Shown one piece after another: positions 17,737-54,101 of a stretch of 64,000 nt of DNA. Made by a program: the position numbers and the translations under genes. The stretch lies in the IMG/VR virus record IMGVR_UViG_3300025732_000018; one strand, 5' to 3'. This DNA comes from a virus. Within the stretch, counting starts at the first letter, position 1, and each line of letters opens with the position of its first letter. Below the pieces are notes generated by a model. It had not been told where the DNA came from, did not search any database, and was given only the letters and a program-made list of their open reading frames with translations.

Positions 17737-18930
17737 ATGACAAAAGTAGTCACAGACGTCATAATTACACCACAACCAGATAAGGTTGTAACGGTACATG
17801 AGGACCTTGGGACGTTCGTCAACAAGGTCGATCTACTCCCTTATATAAAGTCGCGAGACATCAGATTCAAAGCCACAGGTCTAAAACCTACTACCAGAGT
17901 CTACGCGTTCTTTGGATCAAAGCCAGTCAGCGCGTGGGTAGCTCAAGATACAAAGACATTCGGTGACCCTCTGGTCACGGATGCTACTGGATCGATAAGC
18001 GGAACGTTCACCATCCCGCCTAAGACCTACACCGCTGACTCTATTGAGTTCATGCTTGTCGACGTCGACGATCTAACGACCGGAGCCAGCACGATCAGCA
18101 CGCGCGCAGTGGCAACGTATCATGGAAGTCGCTTAGCTGTCAGCTCCGAAAACATCACGCTTGACTTTAGCTTCTCAGTTCCCCAGATTCCTATCATCGA
18201 GGTTGTCTATGGGAACATCACGACTACTGGGACTGGCACACCGTCAACTGGAACAGGTACACCGTCTACGGGTACGCCGTCAACTGGAACTCCTTCTACA
18301 GGCACACCGTCAACTGGAACTCCAGCGACAGGAACTCCAGCGACAGGAACTCCAGCGACAGGAACTCAGACTCCGGAAGACACGTGCTTCACCGGTGATT
18401 CTCTCGTAACTATGGCTAACGGCTCTCTAAAGAGAATCGACGAGGTTAAGATCGGAGAGTTTGTCGCCACTCCTGAAGGAAACCCTGCTCAGGTCATCGG
18501 AATAGAGAACCCAATAGTCGGAGAACGTGGACTTTTAGGAATTAATGGCGGAAAAGCTTTTGCGACCGCAGACCACATATTCAAGTCGACAGGTAACGTC
18601 TGGATAGTTGGTGACGCAGGGCTGTCGCAAGATATATTTCCATCTTTCAACGAGATCATTGAGCAAGGTGGAGTAGTCAAGCAGATAGAGGTCGGAGACG
18701 TCATCGAGACCGATAACGGGCCTGTCACTGTCGTGAGCTTCAACATAGAAGGTCAGGGAAGCTACAGTGAGGTACCGGTGTACGATCTCATGCTGGACGA
18801 CGAGAGTGAGCATACCTACTTCGTCAACGGCTTCGTCGTGCATAACTGTACCCCATGGCAACCGCCGGACACGACTGGCGGAGGAGACGGTCTCGGCGGT
18901 GACGGCGTATCCAGCGGCCCTGAAGAATAA
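17737..18930 (+). CDS. VrlC-like middle part with TGTPS repeats and a Hint/mini-intein domain
   Basis: 'PYIKSRDIRFKATGLKPTTRVYAFF...LVTDATGSISGTFTIP' is a VrlC-like internal segment, followed by CFTGD...TADH...VYDL...VVHNC. Confidence 0.75.
   Translation: MTKVVTDVIITPQPDKVVTVHEDLGTFVNKVDLLPYIKSRDIRFKATGLKPTTRVYAFFGSKPVSAWVAQDTKTFGDPLVTDATGSISGTFTIPPKTYTADSIEFMLVDVDDLTTGASTISTRAVATYHGSRLAVSSENITLDFSFSVPQIPIIEVVYGNITTTGTGTPSTGTGTPSTGTPSTGTPSTGTPSTGTPATGTPATGTPATGTQTPEDTCFTGDSLVTMANGSLKRIDEVKIGEFVATPEGNPAQVIGIENPIVGERGLLGINGGKAFATADHIFKSTGNVWIVGDAGLSQDIFPSFNEIIEQGGVVKQIEVGDVIETDNGPVTVVSFNIEGQGSYSEVPVYDLMLDDESEHTYFVNGFVVHNCTPWQPPDTTGGGDGLGGDGVSSGPEE
18229..18367 (+). repeat. Tandem pentapeptide repeats TGTP(S/A), including 3 exact 15-bp copies
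   Basis: GGAACTCCAGCGACA occurs exactly at 18316-18330, 18331-18345 and 18346-18360, with degenerate copies upstream. Confidence 0.9.
18385..18846 (+). other. Mini-intein / Hint domain (154 aa, no endonuclease)
   Basis: Cys1 block A (CFTGDSLVTMANG), block B TxxH (ATADHIF), block F (VYDLML), block G (VVHN) followed by +1 Cys. Confidence 0.85.
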
Positions 18931-23254: not shown

Positions 23255-26200
23255 TCACTTTCTGATGAAGTGGTAGTCGCCGTCAGGCCCTTGGTTCGAG
23301 AACAGCTCCACGTACTTGAATCCGTTCTTCTCCAGCCAGTCTATAACCTCACCCCTGAGCGGCGCCCCTTTGTTGTACTCGACGTTTTGAAGCTCGAGCA
23401 CGAGGTGCTTCACCGTCTTAAGAGTCTTCTTCATTCCCCTCAGCACGTCTAGCTCGGCGCCCTGCACGTCCATCTTGACCATATCAGGAGCTGGAAAGTT
23501 CTTCTCCTTCACGACGCTGTCGACGGACCTGGTCAGCTTCTTGACTCGATGTGTCTCGTTGAAGAAGTTGACCGTGTTCGGGTTGATCTCCTCGTTCTCC
23601 TTGTAGTAGGAGTTGCCGCCGGGGTGCTCAACGTTCTCCCAGAAGTCGACTTCTTTCCCGTCCTTGTCACTCATGACTCCGTTGAAGTGCTTGTAGTTAC
23701 CCTCCTCGTAGAGGAACTTAGGAGCGTCCATCGCCTCGAACAGGACATACTCGGCGTCAGGCCACGCGAACCTCTTTGCCGACTTAGTCCAGTGAAGGAC
23801 GCAGGCTCCGATGTCGTAGATAACTTTTGGGTGAAAGTCGTACTGGTCTCGTATCTTAGTCAGGTACTCGCAGTGAGCCTGAGGTACCAACCACTGGTCA
23901 CCTAGGTCCCTCAGACGCTTCCTCACAGGATCCTCAAGCGTCGCTGCGGGCTTAAAGTTCTTGAGGACTGTCTGCGTCGTGTGCCCGACCCTGTAGACGT
24001 TCGTGCCGTGGTGGTCGCAGCGGATCGTAGTGTCGGCGTACATCTTGAACCCCTTCTCGCGAGCCTTGCGACAGAAGTCGACGTCCTCAGACACGGTGTT
24101 GCTGTGGTCTAGAGCCGAGTGGTAGACGAACCACGGGTAGCCGATTCCCTCGAACACCCTCTTCTTCACGAGCACGCAGCCGAAGCCACAGCCGTCGATC
24201 GACACCAGACCCTGACCGTCGATGTCCTCTAGTGGTACGTTGCTCATGCCGCCTCGATCGTTCATCCTGTACAGCTCGAGCGTGTGCTGGTTATGCTTCC
24301 TCTGTATGTAGAGTCCGGAAACCAGGTCGACGTCGTGGGCAAGCATCTTCTCTAAGGTGTCTGACGCGAACTCTACATCGTAGTCGACGGCGAACAGGTA
24401 GTCGTATCCGTTCACTACCCAGCTGGCTATCAGGTTTCTCACCTGGTCGATGTTGTATCCGTAGAAGTACTGGAAGTCTGCCCTGTAACCCTCCGGGATA
24501 GTCAGGTCGTAGATAGACTTGAACGTGGCCGGCTCGATGTTCTTAGCGGTCGGTATGGCGATGAGTATCTTCTTACTGTTCACTTTTTTTTTCTCCGGTG
24601 TCTCGAAGACCGTAGACACGGTCCGCTTCGAGAGAATCTTCTTGGCCGTCTTGTTCTGCTCCTCGCCGTTGACCTTGTAGTCGTTCAGCGGGCTGGCGTC
24701 ATTATAGTTATAGACTATCTCCTTGACGGCCTTCACACGGTCTGGGTCGGCGTTCTCTATCATGGCGTAGAACAGCGCGCCGTCGCCTCCAGCCCTGAAC
24801 CACTCGCCGCTCTCGTCCTTGAAGGCGTCGTCAGTAACGTGGTTGATGAGGGCGCGCCTGAAAGTCCTCAGGTGAGTGTACGGCATAATCCAGTTAAAGT
24901 GGTAGTTCCTGTAGTCCCTCCTAGCCTTTACTTCAGGCGGGTAGTCCTGAGCTATTAGAGGGATGTTGTCGACCATCGACCAGCAGCTGCCGTAGGTGAA
25001 CTCAGCGCCGTCCGGACCGTTGTACAGGTTGTTGTAGAAGTTGAGGACGTTGTTGTCGTTGACCAGACTGTCGTCGCCGTCTAGCAGCATGACTATGGAG
25101 TCGTCGTGAACGTACTTCCTGATCACCTCGACCTGATTGAACGGGGCGCCCCTGTTCTCCCTGCGGTTGATCACCATCACCTTCTGCATCCTGTCTGGAG
25201 GAAGCAACTGAAGCGTCTCGGCTATGACTCTCTCGCTGTCGTCAGTCGAGCAGTCGTTAACGACGAAGTGAGTGTAGTTCTCGTAGTCCTGGCATGCCAC
25301 CGACTCGATGCACCTTGCCACGTAGTCTTGAGCGTTGTATAAGGTGCTGATGACGGCTATGTGGTTAGTGACCGGAGAGCGGTACGTGTTCCACTCCTCT
25401 CGGTTGCTGAACCTGCGACCGAACACCCGGTGCACCTTGTCGTTGATGTACGACGCTCTACGGTAGTCATCCACCGACAGATACAGACCAAGCTTCCTGT
25501 ACAGGTGCTGCTTCCACTGGATGGCTACAGTATCCCATCCGTTAACGTCCTTGATGACAGAACAGTAGTTCATCTTTTGTTGGTGTAGATAAGTATTATA
25601 GTACGCTTCTACAACCTTGTCAACAAATTTGTTCACCTGCTCTTCCGAATTAATGTTCGGGAACAGACCGTTTGGCTCGATGGCGTAGTCTATGAGGTAG
25701 CAGGCCTGGTCGACTGCCGTCTCCTCCAGAGCACCGAAGCGAGTGGCCACCAGCGGAGTGTTGTAGGTGAGGGACTCGAGGCTAGAGATTCCGAACGTCT
25801 CTGGGAAGGCTCCCGGAAACAGAAACATCGAGGCCTCGCAGAGGATCTCGGCTATCTGTCTCTGAGTGATGACGCCGGTGAACTCGATGCCCTGCTTCTT
25901 GTAGCGCTTCTCCTCGATCAGCTTCCGCCAGGTCTCCTCCTGAGCGTCCGGAGGAGCGTCCGACCTGAACCTGTAGTACCCACCGATCACCTTCAGCCTG
26001 GCGTCCGGGATCCGCTCCTTGACCTTCGGCCACACTCTGTCTATCAGAGGGATCATGCCCTTGGTGACAGAGGCGTTGTAGACGAAGAGGTTCTTGTCTT
26101 TCTTACTGACGTCGACGTAGTCAAAGTACGGAACGACTCCGTTGCGGGTCATGAACATCTTGTTCTTCAGGACCTCGAAGTTGCGGCGCTTGCCGTGGTC

Positions 26201-26710
26201 CGAGTTTCCGATGTAGCTGGTGTGGAAGTCTGAGAGGGTGAAGAGCTCGTCGATGTAGCCGCTGACCACGAGCTCCTCGACGTTGAGGTCACCCTGACAG
26301 AAAGTGTCGTGCATCCAGAGCGCCTTGAACCTAGCGTTCTTTCTGATCTGCTCGAAGAGGGATGGCTCGAACCTGAACCCGGCGATGTGGCGGTAGGCCT
26401 CGTACATGTACTCCGGAACGAACGGTACGACTGTCCTCATAGATATGACCACGTCGAACGTGGTGTACTGAGTAACCTCCCGGACCGGACGGTAGGTGAC
26501 CCCATCGTACGTACCCGGCTTCGAGTCGTCATCCTCGCAGGAGTTAAAGACGGTCACGTCGAACCCGAGTCGAACGAGCTCCTTGGACATCAGAATCACC
26601 GCTGACTCTGACCCACCTAGGCCTCTCTTCTTAAGGGTATCTCCATCGTAGACGAGACCGATGGTATCGATTATAGCGACCGTAACTTTATCACTCATAT
26701 TGAAGCTCAC
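23255..26710 (-). CDS. Multidomain glycosyltransferase: GT4 (GT-B) + GT2 + second GT-A domain + FkbM-type methyltransferase
   Basis: 'GLGGSESAV...FPETFGISSLESL' (GT4); 'YNAQDYVARCIESV...VNDCSTD...LDGDD' (GT2); 'ILIAIPT...VDYD...GCGFGCVLVK...SEDVDFC' (GT-A); 'YDIGA...FEA...KMDVQGAELDVL' (FkbM). The ATG at 26698 may be the true start. Confidence 0.85.
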   Translation of the reverse strand: MSFNMSDKVTVAIIDTIGLVYDGDTLKKRGLGGSESAVILMSKELVRLGFDVTVFNSCEDDDSKPGTYDGVTYRPVREVTQYTTFDVVISMRTVVPFVPEYMYEAYRHIAGFRFEPSLFEQIRKNARFKALWMHDTFCQGDLNVEELVVSGYIDELFTLSDFHTSYIGNSDHGKRRNFEVLKNKMFMTRNGVVPYFDYVDVSKKDKNLFVYNASVTKGMIPLIDRVWPKVKERIPDARLKVIGGYYRFRSDAPPDAQEETWRKLIEEKRYKKQGIEFTGVITQRQIAEILCEASMFLFPGAFPETFGISSLESLTYNTPLVATRFGALEETAVDQACYLIDYAIEPNGLFPNINSEEQVNKFVDKVVEAYYNTYLHQQKMNYCSVIKDVNGWDTVAIQWKQHLYRKLGLYLSVDDYRRASYINDKVHRVFGRRFSNREEWNTYRSPVTNHIAVISTLYNAQDYVARCIESVACQDYENYTHFVVNDCSTDDSERVIAETLQLLPPDRMQKVMVINRRENRGAPFNQVEVIRKYVHDDSIVMLLDGDDSLVNDNNVLNFYNNLYNGPDGAEFTYGSCWSMVDNIPLIAQDYPPEVKARRDYRNYHFNWIMPYTHLRTFRRALINHVTDDAFKDESGEWFRAGGDGALFYAMIENADPDRVKAVKEIVYNYNDASPLNDYKVNGEEQNKTAKKILSKRTVSTVFETPEKKKVNSKKILIAIPTAKNIEPATFKSIYDLTIPEGYRADFQYFYGYNIDQVRNLIASWVVNGYDYLFAVDYDVEFASDTLEKMLAHDVDLVSGLYIQRKHNQHTLELYRMNDRGGMSNVPLEDIDGQGLVSIDGCGFGCVLVKKRVFEGIGYPWFVYHSALDHSNTVSEDVDFCRKAREKGFKMYADTTIRCDHHGTNVYRVGHTTQTVLKNFKPAATLEDPVRKRLRDLGDQWLVPQAHCEYLTKIRDQYDFHPKVIYDIGACVLHWTKSAKRFAWPDAEYVLFEAMDAPKFLYEEGNYKHFNGVMSDKDGKEVDFWENVEHPGGNSYYKENEEINPNTVNFFNETHRVKKLTRSVDSVVKEKNFPAPDMVKMDVQGAELDVLRGMKKTLKTVKHLVLELQNVEYNKGAPLRGEVIDWLEKNGFKYVELFSNQGPDGDYHFIRK

Positions 26711-26735: not shown

Positions 26736-26760
26736 TATAAATACTCACGAGATATTTATC
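26736..26760. promoter_or_regulatory. Face-to-face bidirectional late promoter cassette
   Basis: TATAAATA (+, 26736-26743), 9-nt spacer, TATTTATC (GATAAATA on the minus strand, 26753-26760), between divergent genes. Confidence 0.75.
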
Positions 26761-41971: not shown

Positions 41972-43705
41972 ATGCACAAGATTGACATGCAACTGAAGCT
42001 TATGCTCGACGGAAGGTTCGACGAGGCTTGGCAACTCTCAGAGGAGATGCAGGCGATCGGGCCAGAGAACCTCCTCGATGCGCGCGGTCAAAAGAACCCA
42101 GAGATGTGGGTCAGACACAGCTTCAACCGAGGCTGGTTCCTCCTTCAGCAGAACAAGTACAAAGAGGGGTGCCAGCTCCTTGAGAACGGTCGCTTCATCA
42201 AGGTCTACGGCAGCCCACCGATGAAGACTACGGCTCCTCTCTTCAACCCAGAGGAGCACGACGTCAAGGGTAAGTCGATAATCATCTCGCTCGAGGGAGG
42301 ATACGGCGACGAGATGATCCACGCTCGCTTCGCTACTTCGTTCAAGAACCTCGGCGCGGAGAACGTCTACCTCGCGGCGGACCCGTCGCTTCACTCTATC
42401 TTAGAGCGCATAGACGGCGTGACCAAGTGCATAACGCGAGCCGAGGCGCACACGGTTCACCACGACTACTGGCTTCCTGGCTTCTCGGCGGGGTGGTTGT
42501 CTGGTCATACGTTCGACGACTTCCCTGGAAAACCTTACCTCACCGCGAAGCCAGAGTCGGTCGATATGTGGAAGAGCGTCCTCAACTCTGACAAGAAGAA
42601 GGTCGGCATCCGCTGGGCAGGCAACCCGAAGTTCGAGCACCAGCAGTTCAGGCGCTTCCCAGAGAAGTTCATGACCCAGATGTCAGAGTACGAGGGCCTG
42701 CAGCTCTACTCCCTCCAGAGAGACAACAACGTTATCGAGCTTCCCGAGAAGATCATCGACCTCCAGCACCTACTGATCTCGTGGGAGGACACCGCCGCGG
42801 CGATCATGAACCTAGACCTAGTGATCACCTCATGTACCTCAGTGGCGCATCTCTCTGCAGCTTTGGGCAAGGAGACGTGGGTGATGGTGCCGATCCTCCC
42901 CTACCACACCTGGACACTGAACGCTCCGTACTCGACTTCCTCACCTTACTACGAGAGCGTCAGACTCTATCGACAAGAGAAGAAGAGCGAGTGGAACCAA
43001 CCGTTTCAGCGTCTCTACGCAGACCTCGAGAGAAAGTTTGACCTTCCTCACCTAGACCTCCCTACACAAGACAAGGAGGTCAAAAGGTTAAACCTCGGGT
43101 GCGGCTTCAAGAAGCACGAAGGATTCGTTAACGTCGACGCCTCGAGCATATGCTCACCGGATCAGGTCGTAGACCTCAACAGCAAGACGTGGCCGTGGAA
43201 GGACGACGAGTTCAGTCACGTCATAGCCAAGGACATCCTTGAGCACCTCGGTCACTCCGGCGTCAAGTTTGAGGACATCATCAAGGAGATGTACAGGGTC
43301 TCTGACAACGGGGCAGTCTGGGAGGTTCAGTTCCCTCACTGGAACTGCGACATAGCCAAGTCAGACCCGGAGCACGTTCGACTGCTGACCATCGACACCT
43401 TCAAGCTCTTCGACAAGAAGCGTTGCTACGAGAAGGCTGTGGCTGGTGAGACCGACTCGTACCACGCTTTCACGCACGACGTGGACATCGAGGTTCTCGA
43501 GCACGCGCTGGAGTTCACCGGTGAGCTGCAGAAGATGATAGACTCCGGACAGATAGGTGAGGGTGAGCTCGAGCACGCCATCAACCACCTGAACAACACG
43601 GTGCTGTCAGTGAAGCTTCTCATTCAGGTCCACAAGCCTGGAAGACACGACCGTCAGGAGTTGGACCGCGAGCTAAGGAAGGCAGCCCTCCATGGATCTA
43701 TCTAA
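41972..43705 (+). CDS. GT9-like (heptosyltransferase/FlmG-type GT-B) glycosyltransferase fused to a SAM-dependent methyltransferase-like domain
   Basis: 'EGGYGDEMIHARF', 'VGIRWAGNP', 'LYSLQ', 'WEDTAAAIMNLDLVITSCTSVAHLSAALGK', 'SPYYESVRLYRQ'; then 'LNLGCG...NVD...ILEHL...EMYRV'. Start re-assigned from 41912 to the ATG after GGAG. Confidence 0.78.
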   Translation: MHKIDMQLKLMLDGRFDEAWQLSEEMQAIGPENLLDARGQKNPEMWVRHSFNRGWFLLQQNKYKEGCQLLENGRFIKVYGSPPMKTTAPLFNPEEHDVKGKSIIISLEGGYGDEMIHARFATSFKNLGAENVYLAADPSLHSILERIDGVTKCITRAEAHTVHHDYWLPGFSAGWLSGHTFDDFPGKPYLTAKPESVDMWKSVLNSDKKKVGIRWAGNPKFEHQQFRRFPEKFMTQMSEYEGLQLYSLQRDNNVIELPEKIIDLQHLLISWEDTAAAIMNLDLVITSCTSVAHLSAALGKETWVMVPILPYHTWTLNAPYSTSSPYYESVRLYRQEKKSEWNQPFQRLYADLERKFDLPHLDLPTQDKEVKRLNLGCGFKKHEGFVNVDASSICSPDQVVDLNSKTWPWKDDEFSHVIAKDILEHLGHSGVKFEDIIKEMYRVSDNGAVWEVQFPHWNCDIAKSDPEHVRLLTIDTFKLFDKKRCYEKAVAGETDSYHAFTHDVDIEVLEHALEFTGELQKMIDSGQIGEGELEHAINHLNNTVLSVKLLIQVHKPGRHDRQELDRELRKAALHGSI

Positions 43706-44399
43706 GTCTCTAAACTTCGGGTATGATACCTCGGTAGAGTCAGCCTACATCATCACGATCAAAGACCACTCCGAGTCAGAGAGACTAGCCAAGGGATGTC
43801 AGCGATCTTGCGACATAGCCGGCATGCCGTGGAAGACATGGGACGCCTTCGACGCTACCGACGGCAAGACCATAAAGATACCTGAGCACTCTAAAGACTC
43901 GTCGTGGCTGAAGTGGGTGAAGGTGTACGATCATCACCTATCAATCACCGAGATAGCATGCTTCTTCAGCCACGCTAGCCTCTGGGCGAGGTGTCTCGAG
44001 ATGGACAGGCCGATAGTCATCCTCGAGCACGACGCCATCATGGTCCAGCGCTACCCTCACATGACTGCCTACAACAGCATCGTGTACCTCGGGGGAGAGG
44101 AGCAGAAGAACCACAGGATGCCGGTAGGTCCCGTGCCGCCTCACGGCTCCCTCAACAACAACTATCACTTCATCTGCAGGGCGCACGCCTACGCCATAGA
44201 CCCACCGATGGCCAAGAACCTGCTCGGCACCCTGATCCAGAGGGGCATATGCGAGAGTCTAGACGTCATCATGAGGGCGGACCTCTTCAACATCAGTCAG
44301 GCAGGCCTGTACGCCTACGACAGGTTCGAGGGTACTACGATCGTTAATAGAAAGAAAGACGTCAGCCTCAAGGACGAGAACGTGGGCAATGAGCGGTAG
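43692..44399 (+). CDS. GT25-like glycosyltransferase
   Basis: 'AYIITI...FDATDG...EIACFFSHASLW...PIVILEHDA...AHAYAIDP..AKNL' follows the GT25 pattern. Confidence 0.7.
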   Translation: MDLSKSLNFGYDTSVESAYIITIKDHSESERLAKGCQRSCDIAGMPWKTWDAFDATDGKTIKIPEHSKDSSWLKWVKVYDHHLSITEIACFFSHASLWARCLEMDRPIVILEHDAIMVQRYPHMTAYNSIVYLGGEEQKNHRMPVGPVPPHGSLNNNYHFICRAHAYAIDPPMAKNLLGTLIQRGICESLDVIMRADLFNISQAGLYAYDRFEGTTIVNRKKDVSLKDENVGNER

Positions 44400-44404
44400 G
44401 TTCT

Positions 44405-44412
44405 TATAAATA
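44405..44412 (+). promoter_or_regulatory. T4-type late promoter (TATAAATA)
   Basis: Exact consensus in the intergenic region upstream of collagen-like fibre 2. Confidence 0.8.
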
Positions 44413-44451: not shown

Positions 44452-47400
44452 ATGGCCGATACTATCTGGGACTACAGCGGTTCAGTACAGGAGCTGATCG
44501 ATCTCTACAACAGCTGGTCTACTCTTCCACTCGAGGAGCAGGCAGCCAAGGAGGGAACTCGGTTTCTTATCACTGGTGACGGCTTTACTAACGGGGCCGG
44601 AGCTTGGTTTGACTGGGGGCTAGACGGCGGTATCATATGGGTCTACAGTATCACACCGTCTTGGTGGGTCTGGTATAATAATGAAAAGGTAACCACGTCA
44701 CCGTTTGGTTCCACTCTACCAGGATACGCAGCTGACGTAGTCTATATGCTTAATGCAGTCGGTCTACCCGGCTCAACTTCGGCATTTCCTTCTAACACCC
44801 CCCGCTACAGCTTCTGGGGAGAAGCCAGAGTACAAGGATATACCGGTTCACGCGGCATGATCGGCTACACTGGTACGATCGGCTTCGCAGGATCTATCGG
44901 TTATGCCGGCTCTCGAGGCTACACTGGCTCGTCAGGCTACACCGGGTCCGCATCTACTTTCCCAGGATACACCGGATCTCAGGGCTACACCGGATCTGCA
45001 ATCGTCGGCTCTCGCGGTTACACCGGGTCTGCGTCTACGGTCATCGGCTACACTGGAAGCATTGGGTACACCGGCTCCAAGGGTGTACAGGGCATTCAAG
45101 GAAACACCGGTTATACCGGATCCGAGGGTCCTCCCAACGGCTACACCGGCTCTAGAGGTAGCACCGGCTACACTGGCTCGGTTGGATACTCTGGAAGCCT
45201 AGGCTACACTGGATCGAGAGGACTGACTGGATTCTCCGGATCTGGCTTCGCCGGCTCTCAGGGATACACTGGCTCACTCGGCTACACGGGCTCACAGGGC
45301 TACAGCGGCTCTGCCGGATTCACCGGATCGGCGTCGACTGCTCCGGGATACACCGGATCTATCGGATACACGGGTTCAGCTGGTTACACCGGCAGCAGGG
45401 GTCTAACAGGCATACAAGGAGACCAAGGTCTTGCTGGCTACACCGGTTCGGTAGGAGAGTCGCTGCAGCCGGACGAGGTCGGACCTCTCTCTGGCAGAAG
45501 TGCTTACGACACTCAAGCTAAAGGATTCGCGTACCTAGCGACCGACACCGACTCCATCTACTATAAGCTCAGCGCTACTTCTGGCGACTGGTCAGACCCT
45601 ATAGCTCTCCTTCGCGGATTCACTGGGTCGCAGGGCTTCACTGGATCTTTTGGATTCACCGGCTCAGTCGGGTTCGTAGGGTCTCTCGGCTACACTGGTA
45701 GCATCGGCTACACTGGATCGATAGGCTACACTGGATCGCAGGGCTTCACCGGGTCTAAGGGATTCACCGGCTCCGCGTCTGAGATTCCTGGTTACAGCGG
45801 TTCTCGCGGCTTCACCGGCTCGGTAGGCTTCGTAGGATCTCAGGGCGTTCAAGGATGGACTGGCTCGCAAGGTCCGCCGGACGGATACACCGGTTCTAGA
45901 GGTTACACCGGCTCACTGGGGTCTCTTGGCTACACCGGCAGCATCGGCTACACCGGATCTCAAGGCATCCGCGGCTACACGGGTTCAGTAGGTTTCGTAG
46001 GTTCTGCCAGCACGACGCCAGGGTACACCGGCTCGAAGGGCGACTCTGGCTACACCGGATCCAAGGGAGACATAGGCTACACCGGTTACACCGGCTCTAA
46101 GGGTGACCCAGACGGATACACTGGATCTACCGGAGCTCAGGGATACACCGGCTCGCGCGGCTTCGGCTACTCCGGAGTTGCTAGCTCGACCAACATAAAC
46201 GCCTCAGGTACTGGTAACAAGACCTGGGTGATGAACCAGTCCTACACGCAGAACGCTTTCGAGCCTGGAATGCGCGTCAGGATGATATGCGTCGACGACC
46301 CGAACGTCTCGAACGAGGGTAACATCGTCAGCTACGTCGGAACCAACTTGACCATCTCGGTCGACGCGGTCGACGGCGCAGGATTCCAGAACAACTGGAT
46401 ACTCGCTGCTACGGGACGCGTCGGATACCTAGGCTACTCAGGATCTAGGGGCTACACCGGCTCGGTAGGATTTACCGGCTCGGTAGGCTTCGTCGGATCG
46501 GTCGGATTCGCTGGGTCTAGGGGATACACCGGATCGCAGGGTGACATCGGTTACACCGGATCTGCCTCTACCGTCGCCGGCCCTCTCGGCTACACGGGCT
46601 CACAGGGCTACAGCGGGTCGAGGGGCGACACCGGAGCTACCGGCTTCGTAGGGTCTCAAGGTGACCTAGGCTACACCGGCTCTCGCGGCTTCGGTGGAAG
46701 TCAGGGTTACGCTGGATCGCGCGGCTTCACTGGATCGATAGGCGACACGGGCTACACCGGATCCGCCTCGTCGACTCCAGGGTACACCGGCTCACTTGGC
46801 TATACCGGGTCTAGAGGATACAACGGAAGCCAGGGCGACATAGGCTACACCGGCAGCCTAGGCTACACGGGATCTCAGGGACCGATCGGCTACGTCGGAT
46901 CTGCTTCTACCGAGATAGGTCCTACGGGATACACCGGTAGCATCGGTTACACTGGATCGAGAGGCTACGCTGGATCGATCGGTGATACTGGATTCACCGG
47001 CTCGTTCGGAACGACAGGCTACACCGGATCGTTTGGGTTTACCGGATCGAAGGGCGACATCGGGTACTCAGGATCTGCGTCTACCGTTCCTGGTTATACG
47101 GGAAGTCTGGGTTACACTGGATCGCAAGGAGACATCGGCTACACCGGTTCAGCCTCTACTGTAGCTGGACCTACTGGTTACTCCGGCTCACAGGGTGACA
47201 TCGGTTACACTGGATCTAAAGGATTCACCGGATCGTTCGGTAACACCGGCTACACCGGCTCTGCTGGTGCGGGATTTACCGGCTCGCAGGGTGACACAGG
47301 CTTCACTGGATCGGGTGGATACACCGGATCGTTCGGATACACCGGGTCGGCTGGATCATTCGTCGTACCAGGTACGAACACACAGGTAGTGTTCAACGAC

Positions 47401-47811
47401 GGCGGTAACGCTAACACCGCGGCTACCTTCGTGTACGACAAGACCAACGGCAGGGTCGGTGTGGGAACTGCCTCGCCGGCGGCCACGATCGACGTGACCG
47501 GAAACTATGGCATGAACATCGTCACTGTCACTGCGTCGGACATCGACTGCTCTCAGGGCAACTACTTCACTAAGACTGCATCTGGAGCTCTGACGTGGAC
47601 CTTCTCTAACGTACCGGCTTCTAGGGCGGTGCTCGTGATCCTCGAGCTCACCAACGGTGGCACCGGAACTCAGACCTGGCCGGCGTCTGTTAAGTGGCCA
47701 GGTGGAACGGCACCAGTTCTAACGGTGTCTGGAGTAGACGTCATAACGTTCCTAACTGACGACAGCGGCACGACGTGGCGCGGTAACCCGACCATGTTGG
47801 ACAGCAAGTAA
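44452..47811 (+). CDS. Collagen-like fibre protein 2
   Basis: GYTGS Gly-X-Y repeats. Shares two inserts and the C-terminal 'DCSQGNYFTKT...LELTNGG...SGTTWRG' domain with fibre 1 but has a different N-terminus. Confidence 0.85.
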   Translation: MADTIWDYSGSVQELIDLYNSWSTLPLEEQAAKEGTRFLITGDGFTNGAGAWFDWGLDGGIIWVYSITPSWWVWYNNEKVTTSPFGSTLPGYAADVVYMLNAVGLPGSTSAFPSNTPRYSFWGEARVQGYTGSRGMIGYTGTIGFAGSIGYAGSRGYTGSSGYTGSASTFPGYTGSQGYTGSAIVGSRGYTGSASTVIGYTGSIGYTGSKGVQGIQGNTGYTGSEGPPNGYTGSRGSTGYTGSVGYSGSLGYTGSRGLTGFSGSGFAGSQGYTGSLGYTGSQGYSGSAGFTGSASTAPGYTGSIGYTGSAGYTGSRGLTGIQGDQGLAGYTGSVGESLQPDEVGPLSGRSAYDTQAKGFAYLATDTDSIYYKLSATSGDWSDPIALLRGFTGSQGFTGSFGFTGSVGFVGSLGYTGSIGYTGSIGYTGSQGFTGSKGFTGSASEIPGYSGSRGFTGSVGFVGSQGVQGWTGSQGPPDGYTGSRGYTGSLGSLGYTGSIGYTGSQGIRGYTGSVGFVGSASTTPGYTGSKGDSGYTGSKGDIGYTGYTGSKGDPDGYTGSTGAQGYTGSRGFGYSGVASSTNINASGTGNKTWVMNQSYTQNAFEPGMRVRMICVDDPNVSNEGNIVSYVGTNLTISVDAVDGAGFQNNWILAATGRVGYLGYSGSRGYTGSVGFTGSVGFVGSVGFAGSRGYTGSQGDIGYTGSASTVAGPLGYTGSQGYSGSRGDTGATGFVGSQGDLGYTGSRGFGGSQGYAGSRGFTGSIGDTGYTGSASSTPGYTGSLGYTGSRGYNGSQGDIGYTGSLGYTGSQGPIGYVGSASTEIGPTGYTGSIGYTGSRGYAGSIGDTGFTGSFGTTGYTGSFGFTGSKGDIGYSGSASTVPGYTGSLGYTGSQGDIGYTGSASTVAGPTGYSGSQGDIGYTGSKGFTGSFGNTGYTGSAGAGFTGSQGDTGFTGSGGYTGSFGYTGSAGSFVVPGTNTQVVFNDGGNANTAATFVYDKTNGRVGVGTASPAATIDVTGNYGMNIVTVTASDIDCSQGNYFTKTASGALTWTFSNVPASRAVLVILELTNGGTGTQTWPASVKWPGGTAPVLTVSGVDVITFLTDDSGTTWRGNPTMLDSK

Positions 47812-48337: not shown

Positions 48338-50701
48338 ATGCTGATCCTTGGCTCAGGAATTATGAGAAAGAAAGTTCAGAGTGACTCTCTGTTCGGGGCC
48401 GGCTATAGTACTTGGTATAGTCTCGGAAACAGCTTTGATGGTGCTAGAAGCTCTCCAGTCGCGGTGACTGCAGCCGGAAACCCTCTGATCTACAAGTCTT
48501 GGAAGACTGTTACTGGAACTAACGGAAACACCGCGGCGTTAAACAGCGTCGGAGAGCTCTACGTCTGGGGTGACAATAACTTTGGACAGTGGGGAAACAA
48601 GACTGCAGGAAATACGAGTCTAGCTCAGCCTGGATTTGACAGAGCGACGCATAGGTCTAGCCCTACGCTGGTTCCCTCTACAGGAAGTTGGACAGTAATT
48701 TCTGTCGGAGGTTACTCGGGGGAAGAGTATAGAGAAGTATGCAATACTGGAATCTACGACCCTAGCGCTCACGTTGCAGGGATCAAGTCAGACGGGACTC
48801 TCTGGACCTGGGGTTACGGGATCTACGGTAAGCTTGGAGCTGGAAACACTTTTAGCAGGTCTTCTCCTACTCAGCTTGGAACTAAGACTGACTGGGTAGA
48901 CGTTGCGTGCGGACCGGAGTTTACGATAGCGTGCGACTCTGCGGGTGACTTGTACGCGTGGGGACACAACTACAGAGGTCAGCTCGGTGACGGAACTACT
49001 ATCGACAGGTCTTCACCGGTCCTCGTGTCCTCAGTTAGAAACTACACCAAGGTCTACGCATCTGGGATGAAGTCGTTCGCAGTCGACGACACTAATCAGT
49101 TGTACTGGGCAGGAGCCGGAGCGAACGCTACATCCCTTGGATACTATCCGACATCAATCGACTCATTGACTCACTCGTCAGTAACCCTTGGAAACAACTT
49201 CTCTAGCGGTTCGATGGGTCCTCAGCACGGTCTGTTCATAAAGACTACCGGCGCTCTATACGCGGCTGGAATCAACGACTACGGGCAGCTTGGTCTCAAC
49301 GACACTTTCAGCAGGTCGAGCTTTGTTCAAGTAGGAGCTGGAACCAACTGGTCAACCGTTATAGTGTCAGCCAGCCACACGCTAGCTCTCAACAACACCG
49401 GGTCTCTGTTCGTCTGGGGAAGAAATAACTACGGACAGCTTGGACTCGGCGACGTCGTGAACAGGTCTTCTCCGACTCTTCTGTCCACCGGCGTCTCTTA
49501 CGTAATGGCTGCTGGATATAACACCTTCTACGTTAAGACCGACGGTACCCTGTGGGCCGTCGGAACCGAGAGATCTGGTCAGCTAGGTAATCAAGACTTA
49601 CTGCTTGACTTTGACACACCACACATCAACAGATCTTCTCCGATTCAGATAGGCTCCGGATTCACGTCTAACATCTTTGGAAAGTCTAACTATCGCGGGG
49701 CTGGAGCTAAGAGCTATATAAACGACGGAAAGCTCTACATGTGGGGTGTCAACGGATACGCGGCTGCGGACGACAACGCTACGAGTTGGACACCATACAA
49801 AAACTTCTGGCTTATGGAGACGAACAGACTCTTCACCAAGGTGCCCGGATCATGGAGTGCTGTATCCATGGGAACTGAGTACGCAGTAGCTATCAAGTCA
49901 GATGGGACCCTATGGTCTTGGGGATCTAATGCATCTTATGGACAGCTTGGAATCAACCTTACTAGCGCAGCAGGAAACAACGGCAGAAGCATACCAGTTC
50001 TAGTATCAAGCGACACGACCTGGAAGAAAGTTCAGGCTGGATTTGGCGGAGCTCTAGCTCTAAAGGGAGCTAGCAGCCCATACAGCCTCTACGGCTGGGG
50101 ATACTACTACATCACGGGTCAGAACAGTTCTATAAACAGAAGCTCTCCGGTGATCATTGGAGCGGCAAACAACTGGAAAGACATAGGCTTCAGTGAGAAT
50201 AGTCTGACGGTCTACGCCGTGGATAAGAACGACAACATCTACGTGTGGGGATACAACAACGTAGGACAGCTAGGCTTAAGCGACACGATCGATCGCTTCA
50301 GTCCTGTGCTACTTGCTACAGGTCAAGCAGGGGCAAAGGTGCAGGCCGGACAGGATCACGGACATATAATTAAGTCCGACGGCTCGCTGTGGTCCACTGG
50401 AAGCAGCGCCTACGGACAGACCGCTCTCGGCTACACTAACGTTTCTAGCTTCACTCAGGTCGGAAGCTCCTCTTGGACAGCGGTAAGCGCCGGCCAGCAA
50501 CACTCTCTAGGCATAGACGCGGCTGGTCGCCTTTTTGCCTGGGGAAGAAACAACTACGGGCAGCTGATGGGTCCGTCTCCAAACATTATCACCTACACGT
50601 ACTCGACGGTTCAAGTCGGGTCTGGCGCTTACGGAAGTTGGACTCTCGTTCGTGCAGCGAGAGACAGCTCGTTCGCCTCAGCTAAGGTAGACATTACTTA
50701 A
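48338..50701 (+). CDS. RCC1-repeat protein 2, putative fibre-tip adhesin
   Basis: About 14 repeats of 'GTLWTWG.N..GQLG....RSSP'. Confidence 0.85.
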   Translation: MLILGSGIMRKKVQSDSLFGAGYSTWYSLGNSFDGARSSPVAVTAAGNPLIYKSWKTVTGTNGNTAALNSVGELYVWGDNNFGQWGNKTAGNTSLAQPGFDRATHRSSPTLVPSTGSWTVISVGGYSGEEYREVCNTGIYDPSAHVAGIKSDGTLWTWGYGIYGKLGAGNTFSRSSPTQLGTKTDWVDVACGPEFTIACDSAGDLYAWGHNYRGQLGDGTTIDRSSPVLVSSVRNYTKVYASGMKSFAVDDTNQLYWAGAGANATSLGYYPTSIDSLTHSSVTLGNNFSSGSMGPQHGLFIKTTGALYAAGINDYGQLGLNDTFSRSSFVQVGAGTNWSTVIVSASHTLALNNTGSLFVWGRNNYGQLGLGDVVNRSSPTLLSTGVSYVMAAGYNTFYVKTDGTLWAVGTERSGQLGNQDLLLDFDTPHINRSSPIQIGSGFTSNIFGKSNYRGAGAKSYINDGKLYMWGVNGYAAADDNATSWTPYKNFWLMETNRLFTKVPGSWSAVSMGTEYAVAIKSDGTLWSWGSNASYGQLGINLTSAAGNNGRSIPVLVSSDTTWKKVQAGFGGALALKGASSPYSLYGWGYYYITGQNSSINRSSPVIIGAANNWKDIGFSENSLTVYAVDKNDNIYVWGYNNVGQLGLSDTIDRFSPVLLATGQAGAKVQAGQDHGHIIKSDGSLWSTGSSAYGQTALGYTNVSSFTQVGSSSWTAVSAGQQHSLGIDAAGRLFAWGRNNYGQLMGPSPNIITYTYSTVQVGSGAYGSWTLVRAARDSSFASAKVDIT

Positions 50702-51473
50702 TCAAGTCGTTGTAGTTGTACTGCGCGCTCGTGAAGTACTGATACTTTCCCTGTAGCTTCAAGGGAAACTTGATTCTCTCTATTCTAGCGCCGGTCCTGC
50801 TAGCTATCGACTCAGCCACCTCTGTGAAGCTCTTAGGCGCAGCAGTACCTACGTCGTAGATTCCTGACTCTTTCTTGCACTCTAGGATAGTCTTCACGAC
50901 GCTGTTGACATGTATAAAGTCACGGTGAGCGCTGTCAGAGTTGTCGAAGATCTTTATGACTCTTGTCTCGTTCGCCTGCTGCATGAACTTGTAGTATGGA
51001 CTCGCCTGCTCCCCCTTCGACCCCTCGTTGTCACCGTACACATTGAAAAACCTCATCCCCCTCACGAGCTTGAACCTGCTCATGTTGTCCTCGACCCAGG
51101 CGTCGACGGTAGCCTTGGTCATGGCGTAGTAGTTAAGCGGGTTTATCCTGTACTGCTTTCCCTCACATGTGTTGCCATAGACCGACCCAGAGCTCGCGTA
51201 TGTGACCGGGATCTGGTAGTCGATCGCCTTCTCAAAGAGCCTGATGCTGAAGTCCACGTTGTGCGCGTGCAAGAGGTTAATGTCCTTGCAGGTCGTGTCT
51301 GATATTGCTCCGAGGTGATAGATCTCGTCGACGTTCTCCCACTCTATCGCGTCTAGGATGGTAAAGATGTCTGGGAGAGTGTTCGTCAGCGTGTCGTAGC
51401 AGGCGACCTGACCGTCAAGCTTTGCCAGCAGGTTCCTTCCAATGAATCCACAGTTACCGGTGACAAACTTCAT
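50694..51473 (-). CDS. hldD: ADP-L-glycero-D-manno-heptose 6-epimerase-like SDR
   Basis: 'VTGNCGFIG', 'HLGAISDTT', 'YASSGSVYG', 'PLNYYAMTK' (YxxxK), 'RFFNVYG..E..KG', 'GKYQYFT'. Confidence 0.85.
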   Translation of the reverse strand: MKFVTGNCGFIGRNLLAKLDGQVACYDTLTNTLPDIFTILDAIEWENVDEIYHLGAISDTTCKDINLLHAHNVDFSIRLFEKAIDYQIPVTYASSGSVYGNTCEGKQYRINPLNYYAMTKATVDAWVEDNMSRFKLVRGMRFFNVYGDNEGSKGEQASPYYKFMQQANETRVIKIFDNSDSAHRDFIHVNSVVKTILECKKESGIYDVGTAAPKSFTEVAESIASRTGARIERIKFPLKLQGKYQYFTSAQYNYNDLIK

Positions 51474-51789
51474 CTTGGTTGATCTCCCTGTGAGGACCGG
51501 TGAAGTACAGGTCTGCGTTCATGGCCTTGTCGTCTATCCACACGTCGTACGACGGCTTCTTCATCTTCAAGCTAGTGTACCTGCAGCCCCACTCGTGAAG
51601 CTGTCTCTCGGTCAGTTCGCTCCAGTCGATACCAGAGTTTCCGCCGCGCGCGGTCCAGTAGTGGATCTCGTGACCCCAGTCGTACAGCATGTTGAAGTGG
51701 TTGATCCTATCCTTGATGGGCTCGCTCCTCGTGTAGTCAGACCCCTTGGTCCTGCATATGGTCCCGTCGATGTCGACCATGTACCTCAT
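51454..51789 (-). CDS. Small HAD-superfamily phosphatase
   Basis: 'VDIDGTIC' (DxD), 'WTARG', 'KP.YDVWIDDKA'. Confidence 0.8.
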   Translation of the reverse strand: MRYMVDIDGTICRTKGSDYTRSEPIKDRINHFNMLYDWGHEIHYWTARGGNSGIDWSELTERQLHEWGCRYTSLKMKKPSYDVWIDDKAMNADLYFTGPHREINQDEVCHR

Positions 51790-52145
51790 CGCTGAGAGTC
51801 TCCTGGCATCACGCGGTAGTTGTCGGCCGGATCGTCCTGACTTGACACCTCGAAGATGGAGGAGTCGTCCTCTAGAGCCTCGAGCTGGTGAACGAAGCCT
51901 GGCATCACACGCACCACGTGACCCATGACGATAGTCTCTTCTTTGATCTGGGCTGTAGACTGGTCTATGGTTCTAAGGTTGAAAGACCCAGTCACCACCA
52001 TGAAGGTCTCGTCCTTCTTCATGTGATAGTGCATGCTTCCCTTTGAGCCCGCCTTGTCAAACTGAAGTATCTTACCACAGTACAGCTCGTTTGAGGCAAA
52101 TATGATCTCTCTTCCCCATCCTTTTTCTACCGTCTGTCTACTCAT
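51786..52145 (-). CDS. Cupin-fold sugar isomerase-like protein
   Basis: 'KGWGRE...YCGKIL...SMHYHMKKDETF...PGFVHQLEALED..IFEVS' contains the cupin metal motif. Confidence 0.75.
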   Translation of the reverse strand: MSRQTVEKGWGREIIFASNELYCGKILQFDKAGSKGSMHYHMKKDETFMVVTGSFNLRTIDQSTAQIKEETIVMGHVVRVMPGFVHQLEALEDDSSIFEVSSQDDPADNYRVMPGDSQR

Positions 52146-53316
52146 TTCTCATCTTCTCCACGATGTCAGTAGTCGAGAAACCCTCGACGAGTGGTATGAT
52201 TATAACTTCAGCTAGATCGTTGCCTACTACGGTAGACACCTGATAGTCGCCTCCCTTGGTGATGATTGACGGCTGTACGCTCTTGATTAGCTCGAGCGGA
52301 GTGTCCTCATCGAAGATGATCACCTCGTCGACCCACTTGATCGCCTCGAGTGCGGCCTTCCTAGACTCCTGGTCATTGATGGGTCTGCACATTCCTTTAA
52401 GCCTGCGAACGCTCTCGTCGCTGTTGATCCCCACTACGAGTCTGTCTCCCATGTCGCGAGACTTCTTAAGTAACTCGATGTGCCCACGGTGCAGGATGTC
52501 GAAGCAGCCGTTGGTGAAGACTACCTTAGGACGCGCCTTAGCTATGTCCTCGGCAGTAAGCTTGTACGTGCCGAAGCGAGTGACTGATATCGTGGCCAGG
52601 GTGGTGGCCTGATGAAGCGCCGTGGCGAGATCCTTTCCTGCAGCCAGAGCTGATACCATTCCGGCAGTCACCACGTCTCCCGCTCCAGTGACGTCGGCCA
52701 CCTCTACCTTCTCGGTCGGGAAGTGTCCAACTGACCCGTCCTTGCTATAGGTGTATATTCCGTCGGATCCAGCCGTCACCACTAGGTTCTCGATGTCATA
52801 GTACTTTAAGACGTCGAGTGCCTCATAACCCTCGACGCCACTCTTCTTGAGTTCCTGCTTGTTCATCTTGACCATCCAGGCTCCGGAGCACTCTTGCAGG
52901 ACTCCCTTGGTATCTACGATAACGCGACTCCCTCTCTCGCTGTAGTACTCGATCAGATCTTCTACTGAAGTGATTGTGCCCTTTAGATAGTCTACCAAGA
53001 CGACGTAGTCGTAGTGCTTGTCAGACTTAAATGAGCTTGTCGGGTGACTGTCGGTGGCGTCGTCGTCACACCTGAAGACTATCTTGTTGTCGCAGACGTA
53101 CCGAGTCTTAAACGAGGTGCTACCCGTCATGATGTCGGGTCTACACCCTAGAGCCTTGAGGTTCTCGTATACGTTGTATACCCCTCCAGACTTACTGGTC
53201 TCTCTGATCTGATAGAAGATTGGGATAGGAGCCTCGGCAGAGACCCTCTCGGTTCCACAGTAGACGTATCGGTCTAGTATGGCGTCTCCGATCACTAGAA
53301 CATTCATGTCGCTCAC
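52138..53316 (-). CDS. hldE: Bifunctional heptose kinase / nucleotidyltransferase
   Basis: 'VIGDAILDRY...RVSAEAPIP', 'DYLKG', 'DVTGAGDVV' (PfkB kinase); 'VFTNGCFDILHRGH...GINSDESVRRLKG..RPIN...KGGDY...STT'. Likely start is the ATG at 53307. Confidence 0.9.
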   Translation of the reverse strand: MSDMNVLVIGDAILDRYVYCGTERVSAEAPIPIFYQIRETSKSGGVYNVYENLKALGCRPDIMTGSTSFKTRYVCDNKIVFRCDDDATDSHPTSSFKSDKHYDYVVLVDYLKGTITSVEDLIEYYSERGSRVIVDTKGVLQECSGAWMVKMNKQELKKSGVEGYEALDVLKYYDIENLVVTAGSDGIYTYSKDGSVGHFPTEKVEVADVTGAGDVVTAGMVSALAAGKDLATALHQATTLATISVTRFGTYKLTAEDIAKARPKVVFTNGCFDILHRGHIELLKKSRDMGDRLVVGINSDESVRRLKGMCRPINDQESRKAALEAIKWVDEVIIFDEDTPLELIKSVQPSIITKGGDYQVSTVVGNDLAEVIIIPLVEGFSTTDIVEKMRNE

Positions 53317-53318
53317 CT

Positions 53319-53343
53319 TATAAATACCACGGATCTATTTATC
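53319..53343. promoter_or_regulatory. Face-to-face bidirectional late promoter cassette
   Basis: TATAAATA (+, 53319-53326), 9-nt spacer, TATTTATC (53336-53343), between hldE and gp13. Confidence 0.75.
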
Positions 53344-53363
53344 GCTTTACAGAAGAGGCTCAG

Positions 53364-54101
53364 ATGGCCGTTCCCACTACCAGAGAAGAGTTCAAGCTCA
53401 ACTGCCTCCGCCGCTGCGGTTACCCAGTTATCGAGATCAACGTCGACGACGACCAGATAGAGGACCGAATCGACGAGGCCCTGTCTAAGTACTGGGACTA
53501 CCATTTTGACGGTACAGAAAAATTATACTACAAGTACGAGCTAACGTCAACTGATATTGATAACCAGTACATAACTATTCCTGAGAACATCATCGGGGTG
53601 GTCAACCTCTTTGACATCGGAAGCTCGCTCAGTACCAACAACCTGTTCAACATCAGGTACCAGATAGCCCTGAACGACCTCTACACGCTGACCTCGACCA
53701 GCATGGTCCCGTACTACATGGCCATGCAGCACATCCAGCACCTGGAGCAGCTCTTAGTAGGAAAGCAGCCGATCAGGTACAACCGCCACAGGAACAGGCT
53801 CCACATCGACATGGACTGGAAGAAGGTGGACGTCGGTTACTTCATCGTCGCCGAGTGCTACCAGATCGTAGACCCGACCGAGTTCACCAACGTCTGGAAA
53901 GACACCTGGCTCCAGAAGTACGCGGCGGCCCTCATCAAGAGGCAGTGGGGAACCAACCTGACCAAGTTCAGCGGAATGGTCTTGCCAGGTGGCGTGACCT
54001 TCAACGGCGAGAAGATCTACGACGACGCAAACGCGGCGGTAGAGAAGATAGAGGCCGAGCTTCTAGACTACTCGCTTCCAGTCTCAGACATGATAGGCTG
54101 A
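53364..54101 (+). CDS. gp13: Neck protein gp13
   Basis: 'CLRRCGYPVIEINVDDDQIEDRIDEAL..YWDYHFDG...KRQWGTNLTKFSGMVLPGGVTFNG'. Confidence 0.93.
   Translation: MAVPTTREEFKLNCLRRCGYPVIEINVDDDQIEDRIDEALSKYWDYHFDGTEKLYYKYELTSTDIDNQYITIPENIIGVVNLFDIGSSLSTNNLFNIRYQIALNDLYTLTSTSMVPYYMAMQHIQHLEQLLVGKQPIRYNRHRNRLHIDMDWKKVDVGYFIVAECYQIVDPTEFTNVWKDTWLQKYAAALIKRQWGTNLTKFSGMVLPGGVTFNGEKIYDDANAAVEKIEAELLDYSLPVSDMIG

Follow-up and report, generated by a model that had tools for sequence, protein, structure and literature searches.

Background and overview

The textbook pathway to ADP-heptose is an antibiotic target and also gives rise to an innate-immune signal. In its canonical form, it runs through GmhA, the SIS enzyme to which the isomerase step is attributed, the HldE kinase, the HAD phosphatase GmhB, the HldE adenylyltransferase and HldD. 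The conversion of sedoheptulose-7-phosphate to D-glycero-D-manno-heptose-7-phosphate is the seven-carbon equivalent of the conversion of fructose-6-phosphate to mannose-6-phosphate, and by this analogy a cupin resembling phosphomannose isomerase (PMI) is a natural candidate for the step. Here, we analyzed a four-gene operon in a 64,000-nucleotide stretch, referred to as the window, of the virus record IMGVR_UViG_3300025732_000018, a linear IMG/VR record of 117,822 b with a CheckV completeness of ~70% and a GC content of ~54%. The operon encodes HldE-like and HldD-like enzymes together with a cupin and a small HAD phosphatase. Judged from sequence comparison, these four genes probably enable the virus to make ADP-L-glycero-beta-D-manno-heptose from sedoheptulose-7-phosphate by a self-sufficient pathway, in which the cupin would replace GmhA and the small HAD would replace GmhB. 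It is also rather likely that the cupin family as a whole represents a sedoheptulose-7-phosphate isomerase that has gone unrecognised, is not homologous to GmhA and has repeatedly displaced it, and that, together with a minimal HAD displacing GmhB, would provide viral heptose in hosts without the pathway. A literature search for a cupin-type sedoheptulose-7-phosphate or phosphoheptose isomerase found no relevant paper in the library searched, and searches for phage-encoded ADP-heptose and for heptose in DPANN archaea also found nothing relevant.

Comparable gene clusters are carried by T4-like cyanophages (P-SSM2, S-CAM1, S-SSM7, P-TIM68, Bellamy, and SynMITS9220M01). These clusters likewise comprise a kinase, an adenylyltransferase, a small HAD, a cupin, and a short-chain dehydrogenase/reductase (SDR), at 35-49% identity to the window proteins, and also lie in a hypervariable fibre region. 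The window differs from them in that its kinase and transferase are fused, its gene order is different and its GC content is 54%. As judged from these homologues, the arrangement is not special to the window phage, but is widespread and present in cultured cyanophages.

Gene content of the operon

The operon lies at positions 50694-53316 of the window, and its genes are as follows:

52138-53316, minus strand: HldE-like bifunctional enzyme, 392 aa (PF00294, PF01467; best NCBIfam match NF008454)
51786-52145, minus strand: single-domain cupin of the metal type, 119 aa; proposed sedoheptulose-7-phosphate isomerase (GmhA analogue)
51454-51789, minus strand: capless HAD phosphatase, 111 aa; proposed heptose-1,7-bisphosphate 7-phosphatase (GmhB analogue)
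50694-51473, minus strand: HldD-like SDR (ADP-heptose 6-epimerase-like), 259 aa (PF01370, TIGR02197)

The order hldE-cupin-HAD-hldD with overlapping starts and stops, described in the initial annotation, was confirmed by family scans and by the listing of open reading frames (ORFs), in which successive genes overlap by 8, 4, and 20 nt. The scans identified a PfkB kinase domain (E 1e-23) and a cytidylyltransferase-like domain (E 5e-21) in the HldE-like protein, corresponding to a short heptose-7-phosphate kinase (residues ~1-258) fused to a heptose-1-phosphate adenylyltransferase (~262-392). The kinase part is ~60 aa shorter than its E. coli counterpart. The translation contains the kinase GG and DVTGAGD motifs and the transferase GCFDILHRGH motif, the protein matches PHROG 8133 and 7878, and the true start of hldE is likely the ATG at 53307. 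All NCBIfam scores of this protein were under the cut-offs (NF008454, 280 against 521 bits; TIGR02198, 167 against 345; TIGR02199, 174 against 181.5). The best NCBIfam match of the HldD-like protein, TIGR02197 (ADP-glyceromanno-heptose 6-epimerase), reached 186.8 bits against a cut-off of 274.6; the protein has a GxxGxxG-like N-terminus and a YxxxK motif, and is 259 aa long compared with the usual ~310. The proposal that the operon works without canonical gmhA and gmhB genes agrees with the 117.8 kb of the record (~70% of the genome), in which models for SIS, SIS_2, gmhA, and GmhB found no match, even at E<=1.

The cupin and its relatives

Sequence and structural model agree that the 119-aa protein is a metal-binding-type cupin with both cupin motifs. 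Its AlphaFold2 (AF2) model is an all-beta barrel (pLDDT 94.8) matched by 145 PDB chains at Z>=8, and all of the top ones are cupins. Residues H39, H41, E46, and H86, the 3-His/1-Glu metal site, are invariant in 30 diverse members, which also share K8, K25, K44, R111, E13, E99, and D108. GmhA (SIS_2 fold, TIGR00441) and the cupin have in common the proposed reaction, the place in the pathway, the operon position and, in DPANN, the fusion partner (HldE kinase). However, GmhA is a ~190-aa alpha/beta SIS domain, whereas the cupin is a 119-aa beta-barrel with a His3-Glu metal site, and there is no kinship in sequence or fold; the SIS models PF13580 and TIGR00441 did not match the cupin.

Family scans of the cupin gave weak matches only (WbuC, the CapF C-terminal domain, D-lyxose isomerase, Cupin_1), and a PDB profile search with its sequence returned generic cupins only (oxalate decarboxylase, KdgF, Cap5F, lyxose isomerase; E 4e-5 to 1). 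The D-lyxose isomerase family PF07385 scored 22.3 bits over the whole protein against a cut-off of 20.8, with no single stretch passing. The type II PMI cupin family PF01050 did not match the window cupin at E<=0.01, and a few homologues carry a precomputed PF01050 match. The family itself is large. A profile search against 1.84 billion cluster representatives yielded 2,191 cupin clusters at E<=1e-10 (~2,200 at 50% identity); many members are 50-63% identical, and the JGI name is 'mannose-6-phosphate isomerase-like cupin'. A relative is encoded on at least 575 IMG/VR contigs, and others occur in DPANN archaea and in bacteria of the candidate phyla radiation (CPR). Relatives at ~40% identity were found in 35 cultured-phage records, which belong without exception to T4-like cyanophages or marine single-cell viruses.

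Several small cupin isomerases are similar to the window protein, including the PMI 7zvy of T. kodakarensis, the PF01050 domain, the D-lyxose/mannose isomerase 7nzo and the cupin phosphoglucose isomerase 1j3p. They share a single barrel of ~110-120 aa (Z 12.9-14.5) and the metal site, and their chemistry shares with the proposed step the formation of a manno-configured aldose from a ketose phosphate. The window cupin differs from them in its ~19-22% identity, in leaving their Pfam thresholds unreached, in its proposed seven-carbon substrate, and in its heptose rather than mannose context.

The top fold match was the CapF cupin domain (Z 15.7, 113 residues aligned, 20% identity; Foldseek rank 5), and other matches included 7zvy (Z 14.5, 19% identity), KdgF (Z 14.5), and 7nzo (Z 13.6). 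The initial annotation had offered as an alternative that the cupin alters heptose stereochemistry, and the CapF match speaks for this part of it. In such a case, the cupin would work as a tailoring epimerase whose substrate is either the nucleotide-heptose or a keto intermediate from the HldD-like dehydrogenase, the product would be a non-standard heptose, and the isomerase would come from a host GmhA. The CapF cupin domain and the RmlC-like heptose epimerases of Campylobacter would be the models for this activity. The C-terminal cupin of CapF (Cap5F) and WbuC are, similarly, metal-binding cupins working beside an SDR domain; an HldD-like SDR nearly always accompanies the cupin, and weak matches to PF14667 (CapF C-terminal), WbuC (TIGR04366, 29.7 bits under a cut-off of 42), and WbcJ were also seen. 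However, CapF epimerises C3 of a UDP-4-keto sugar from a dehydratase, and HldE-type cassettes lack such a 4,6-dehydratase. A tailoring epimerase is unlikely, and it would leave unexplained the distribution of GmhA, to which we now turn.

Conserved neighbourhoods and the exclusion of GmhA

A total of 143 cupin loci (80 viral, 60 cellular, S-CAM1, Bellamy, and the window genome) were translated in six frames and searched to a reach of 8 kb from the cupin with profiles seeded from the window proteins and from E. coli GmhA and GmhB. An HldE-type kinase was present in 106 loci, an adenylyltransferase in 106 and an HldD-like SDR in 105. A canonical GmhB-like HAD was found in 40 loci and the small HAD in 17, and both were found at E<=1e-5 in one. 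GmhA was detected in none of the 143 loci, also when the search was repeated at E<=1 with a profile built from four GmhA sequences. The usual operon in DPANN (Woesearchaeota, Nanoarchaeia, Aenigmatarchaeota) and CPR genomes is cupin-HldD-kinase-GmhB-adenylyltransferase. These five genes would cover the five steps if the cupin is the isomerase, to which it is assigned by elimination in the archaeal operon.

The same pattern was seen beyond the immediate neighbourhood. SIS_2 was absent from 40 whole viral records with the cupin, two of which (165 kb and 365 kb) are >=99% complete. Among 25 cellular genomes with the cassette, including two unpublished genomes (G009 and G010), ~9 have a ~200-aa SIS_2 protein somewhere and the rest have weak GlmS-like matches only. 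A phylogenetic profile was then taken from 301 DPANN genomes sampled from the phylum of one Woesearchaeote, with thresholds of E<=1e-60 for the HldE kinase, E<=1e-15 for the cupin and >=140 bits for a strong GmhA. A strong HldE kinase was present in 70 genomes, the cupin in 22 and a strong GmhA in 57. Of the 70 genomes with the kinase, 19 carry the cupin and 38 carry GmhA, including one that carries the two together (on different contigs), and both are missing from 14. The odds ratio is 0.02 and the Fisher p is 3e-7 in a test that ignores shared ancestry, a point that weighs against taking the value literally. Without the unpublished genome G307, the counts of both, cupin alone, GmhA alone, and neither were 1, 17, 37, and 14 (p=6e-7). 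None of the conclusions depends solely on G009, G010, or G307. The cupin occurs in at least three operon or fusion architectures, which argues for more than one event behind the exclusion pattern.

For viruses, two samples were chosen separately, one by the cupin and one by GmhA, and because of this selection a 2x2 Fisher test across them would give no valid probability and was set aside. The 80 IMG/VR loci chosen for GmhA included 15 with the kinase, 16 with the transferase and 1 with the cupin (L191).

In L191 (5853-13751; IMG/VR contig 3300027631_002279), a GHMP kinase, GmhA and an adenylyltransferase form a cluster, and a lone cupin lies 5 kb off, beyond an endolysin gene.

Fusions and a domain swap

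Domain fusions in DPANN provide a direct comparison between the two proteins. In genomes G285 and G211, a kinase-GmhA fusion of ~510-526 aa, whose GmhA part matches TIGR00441 at 217 bits, is followed by an adenylyltransferase-GmhB fusion. In G151, a kinase-cupin fusion of 443 aa is followed by an adenylyltransferase-GmhB fusion and HldD. A second kinase-cupin fusion, of 439 aa, is found in G127; its kinase matches TIGR02198 at 350 bits, its cupin is 35% identical to the window cupin, and a GT9-like heptosyltransferase precedes it. The kinase parts of the kinase-GmhA and kinase-cupin proteins are 36% identical up to ~residue 312, whereas their C-terminal domains are unrelated, so that the two-gene operons match except that one has the cupin where the other has the GmhA domain. 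A tailoring epimerase would not explain this swap in matching kinase-X/adenylyltransferase-GmhB operons; moreover, HldD was not detected in the 8 kb analysed around the G127 fusion. In metagenomic proteins, the adenylyltransferase is fused to the cupin in either order (adenylyltransferase-cupin in P0337, cupin-adenylyltransferase in P0358), and the small HAD is fused to the cupin in P0251, P0256, P0260, and P0317.

ADP-heptose genes are common in DPANN, as seen from the 70 of 301 sampled genomes with a strong HldE kinase. They often occur as kinase-GmhA plus adenylyltransferase-GmhB fusions (for example L146:3489-5069 and L146:5076-6149, and L147, from G285 and G211), sometimes with a second kinase copy.

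The small HAD phosphatase

The 111-aa protein, which starts MRYMVDIDGT and thus carries a DIDGT motif, belongs by its sequence motifs to the HAD phosphatase superfamily. All four HAD motifs are present (D6-x-D8-x-T10, T46, K78, and D86-D87), each at least 90% conserved in 17 members. With GmhB (HAD-IIIA), it shares the superfamily, the four catalytic motifs and the slot in the cassette. It differs in length (111 against ~180-190 aa) and is nearer to the capless PNKP-type and EcbF/BcbF phosphatases, to which it has weak matches, and the GmhB/HAD-IIIA models TIGR00213, TIGR01656, and TIGR01662 did not match it.

This resemblance raises the possibility that the small HAD is a phosphatase for another substrate, such as a nucleotide or polynucleotide 3'-phosphate as in T4 PNKP, and lies in the cluster by chance. 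Its sole Pfam match is the PNKP phosphatase domain (E 0.007), and it matches phrog_415 'polynucleotide kinase' at E 1e-7. In addition, 36 of the 74 complete cassettes away from contig ends have neither phosphatase, while 23 have GmhB, 9 have the small HAD and 6 match both profiles at a relaxed threshold. However, the best NCBIfam match of the small HAD is a capsule-biosynthesis phosphatase family, it takes GmhB's position in the cassette and seldom co-occurs with GmhB, it is fused to the cupin in the four metagenomic proteins named above, and it accompanies both HldE-type and HddA/HddC-type pathways. Thus, an unrelated phosphatase is improbable, and a GmhB-like role for the small HAD is preferred. 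The 36 cassettes with neither protein suggest that the phosphatase is the most dispensable step; E. coli gmhB mutants are reportedly leaky.

Cyanophage relatives and public labels

In S-CAM1, the neighbours of the cupin are an adenylyltransferase, a PfkB kinase, a 107-aa 'phosphoheptose isomerase', and an SDR epimerase, and the cupin itself is annotated 'cysteine dioxygenase'. The window HAD is 41% identical to this 'phosphoheptose isomerase' and 49% identical to the Bellamy copy, which matches the HAD_PNKP model only. No SIS protein or GmhA was found in S-CAM1 and Bellamy. Because the labelled protein matches the window HAD and neither phage has an SIS protein, the label is judged to be misplaced. 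The same labels are repeated in PHROGs, where phrog_1238 (the HAD) is a 'phosphoheptose isomerase' and phrog_7851 (the cupin) a 'cysteine dioxygenase', and likewise in the RefSeq records NC_020837 and NC_047838. Across published records of the cyanophage clusters, the cupin is entered either as 'cysteine dioxygenase' or as hypothetical. A genome announcement also lists 'phosphoheptose isomerase' among cyanophage host-like genes (PMC7378029). From these matches, the public labels appear to be wrong, with 'phosphoheptose isomerase' on a phosphatase and 'cysteine dioxygenase' on a likely isomerase.

In Bellamy, the same cupin and small HAD stand beside an HddA-like GHMP kinase (NF049969, 279 bits) and an HddC-like nucleotidyltransferase, and the cluster also has a GMD-like 4,6-dehydratase and an RmlD-like reductase; by its gene content, it is a cluster of the GDP-(6-deoxy)heptose type. 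The dehydratase and reductase beside this cupin would suit a tailoring epimerase. That the cupin and HAD are common to two unrelated kinase/transferase pairs is expected if they supply the shared isomerase and phosphatase steps. In addition, cyanobacterial lipopolysaccharide (LPS) is without heptose according to a review (PMC4390846), suggesting that the cyanophage relatives may infect hosts that do not supply the pathway, and a tailoring enzyme dependent on host GmhA is less easily reconciled with such hosts.

Proposed pathway and its weighing

We propose the following scheme for the viral operon. The metal-dependent cupin, related to mannose-6-phosphate and lyxose isomerases, would convert sedoheptulose-7-phosphate to D-glycero-D-manno-heptose-7-phosphate, and the HldE kinase domain would phosphorylate C1. 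The 111-aa capless HAD would then take off the 7-phosphate, which is the job of GmhB, the HldE transferase domain would add AMP, and the HldD-like enzyme would epimerise C6. We infer the GmhA-type function of the cupin from synteny, exclusion and fusions; the exact steps of the cupin and of the HAD, and the product, are likewise predictions from gene content, intact catalytic motifs and the comparative pattern. The initial annotation had suggested that the cupin replaces GmhA and the 111-aa HAD replaces GmhB, and the comparison supports this through synteny, the exclusion of GmhA, the fusions, the alternation of the small HAD with GmhB, and the association with two kinase/transferase pairs. 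Its alternative of altered stereochemistry drew support from the CapF fold match and leaves the exclusion of GmhA unexplained. Its remark that ADP-heptose is the ALPK1 agonist has no evident bearing on an environmental phage.

Several observations weigh against the proposed scheme. The top fold matches are tied, with the CapF epimerase within ~1 Z of the isomerases, so the modelled fold cannot separate an isomerase from an epimerase, and PF14667 scored 28.2 bits on the cupin, close to its cut-off of 28.7. The HldE and HldD homologues fall under the NCBIfam equivalog cut-offs, and the product could therefore be another nucleotide-activated heptose. In about half of the complete viral cassettes, a phosphatase is missing from the neighbourhood. 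Three or four cupin-bearing archaeal genomes also carry a weaker SIS_2 protein, and the archaeal genome G271 has both GmhA and the cupin, as does L191, the only viral locus in which both were seen. About 25 cupin loci, mostly in bacterial metagenome-assembled genomes, have no heptose genes nearby, and the two of them that were examined (L004 and L012) adjoin unrelated genes. Claims of absence are limited by the ~70% complete genome and by incomplete metagenome-assembled genomes.

The loci without heptose genes, the joint presence of GmhA and cupin in L191 and G271, and the diversity of cupin chemistries would also suit a cupin that belongs to the pathway without being its isomerase. It could be an accessory or regulatory metal-binding subunit, a pyrophosphatase or another sugar-phosphate enzyme, with heptose-7-phosphate coming from the host or from an unrecognised enzyme. 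However, the metal site and basic residues are invariant across the 30 diverse members, the isomerase is the one step without an assigned gene in the archaeal five-gene operons, and GmhA and the cupin exclude each other. We regard such a role as very improbable, and an isomerase as the preferred assignment for the cupin.

Setting in the phage and possible use of the sugar

In this T4-like phage, the operon is flanked by tail-fibre genes on one side and neck genes on the other. Upstream on the plus strand are a collagen-repeat tail fibre (44452-47811), a fibre chaperone and an RCC1-repeat protein, and downstream are homologues of gp13, gp14, gp15, the small and large terminase subunits, the sheath, and the tube. 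Among cultured phages, cyanomyoviruses (Kyanoviridae) have the closest terminases, at 55% identity. A psbA gene was absent from the 117.8 kb of the record, and a nucleotide search with the cassette returned no match among cultured phages. Features relevant to expression and glycosylation are as follows:

53319-53343, both strands: divergent intergenic region with T4-late-promoter-like motifs
41972-43705, plus strand: GT9-like GT-B glycosyltransferase fused to a methyltransferase, 577 aa (AF2 model and Foldseek); candidate ADP-heptose user
43692-44399, plus strand: GT25-family glycosyltransferase (PF01755, E 2e-14), directly upstream of the fibre
44452-47811, plus strand: collagen-repeat tail fibre, 1119 aa; an exact TATAAATA at 44405 lies between the GT25 gene and the fibre
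23255-26710, minus strand: GT4/GT1, GT2, and FkbM-methyltransferase protein, 1151 aa, among plus-strand fibre genes

The divergent region carries an exact T4-late-promoter-like TATAAATA on the plus strand ahead of the gp13-like gene, and a one-mismatch GATAAATA on the minus strand, 20-30 nt before the hldE start and facing the heptose operon. Exact copies of TATAAATA were observed 3 times in the window against 0.34 expected, and the remaining two are directly upstream of fibre genes, at 26736 and 44405. A 63-aa ORF upstream of hldE (53313-53504, minus strand) is probably spurious; it has no family match and overlaps the gp13-like gene.

The 577-aa protein had no match in a Pfam scan, and PF01075 (GT9) had no match in the virus record. 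Its AF2 model (pLDDT 83.7) gave as best Foldseek matches the GT9 enzyme 3tov, WaaF 1psw, TibC with ADP-heptose 4rb4, and WaaC, with E values of 7e-7 to 7e-4 and TM scores of 0.46-0.55 on the target for GT9 enzymes; its C-terminus matches methyltransferases. On the basis of this model, the protein is a candidate user of ADP-heptose. In nine other loci, of which seven are of the small-HAD type, a homologue lies no more than 8 kb from the cupin cassette. The protein is highly conserved, being matched by 2,943 database proteins, many at ~60% identity, yet it is nearly missing from cultured phages, with 5 records, the best being Synechococcus phage BUCT-ZZ01 at 49%. This phage of S. elongatus PCC 7942 was considered as a cultured model, and was set aside; it has the GT9-like gene and is without the cupin and HldE.

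GT25 includes collagen galactosyltransferases, and by analogy the collagen-repeat fibre may be glycosylated. A full-length homologue of the 1151-aa protein lies 0-3.4 kb from the cupin in the viral locus L128. The heptose might be used late in infection by phage glycosyltransferases among the fibre genes, on virion fibres or on the host surface. A plausible reading of these features is that the phage expresses a glycosylation system late, directed at its fibres or at the cell surface.

Other sugar-related genes lie in the record outside the window (loci L151 and L152). At ~82860-85890, an SDR epimerase/dehydratase stands beside a UDP-galactopyranose mutase, and a C5 cytosine DNA methylase comes next. 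Another GMD-like SDR is located at 114915-115916, near the contig end. Within the baseplate/fibre region of the window, a 397-aa ORF (17737-18930, plus strand) has weak Hint/intein-like matches at residues ~215-270 (E 2e-5 to 2.5e-4, under the cut-offs).

Significance

If the proposed assignment is true, two unrelated enzyme families would serve the isomerase step, which would be a clear example of non-orthologous displacement, and two systematic mislabels in phage databases would be corrected. Pathway calls would change for DPANN and CPR genomes, in which a missing gmhA otherwise reads as an incomplete pathway. Many marine and freshwater phages would make their own heptose, raising the question of the target of glycosylation. 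The occurrence of the same cupin/HAD swap in hundreds of viruses and in tiny archaea points to an enzyme family that has gone unrecognised in a well-studied pathway.

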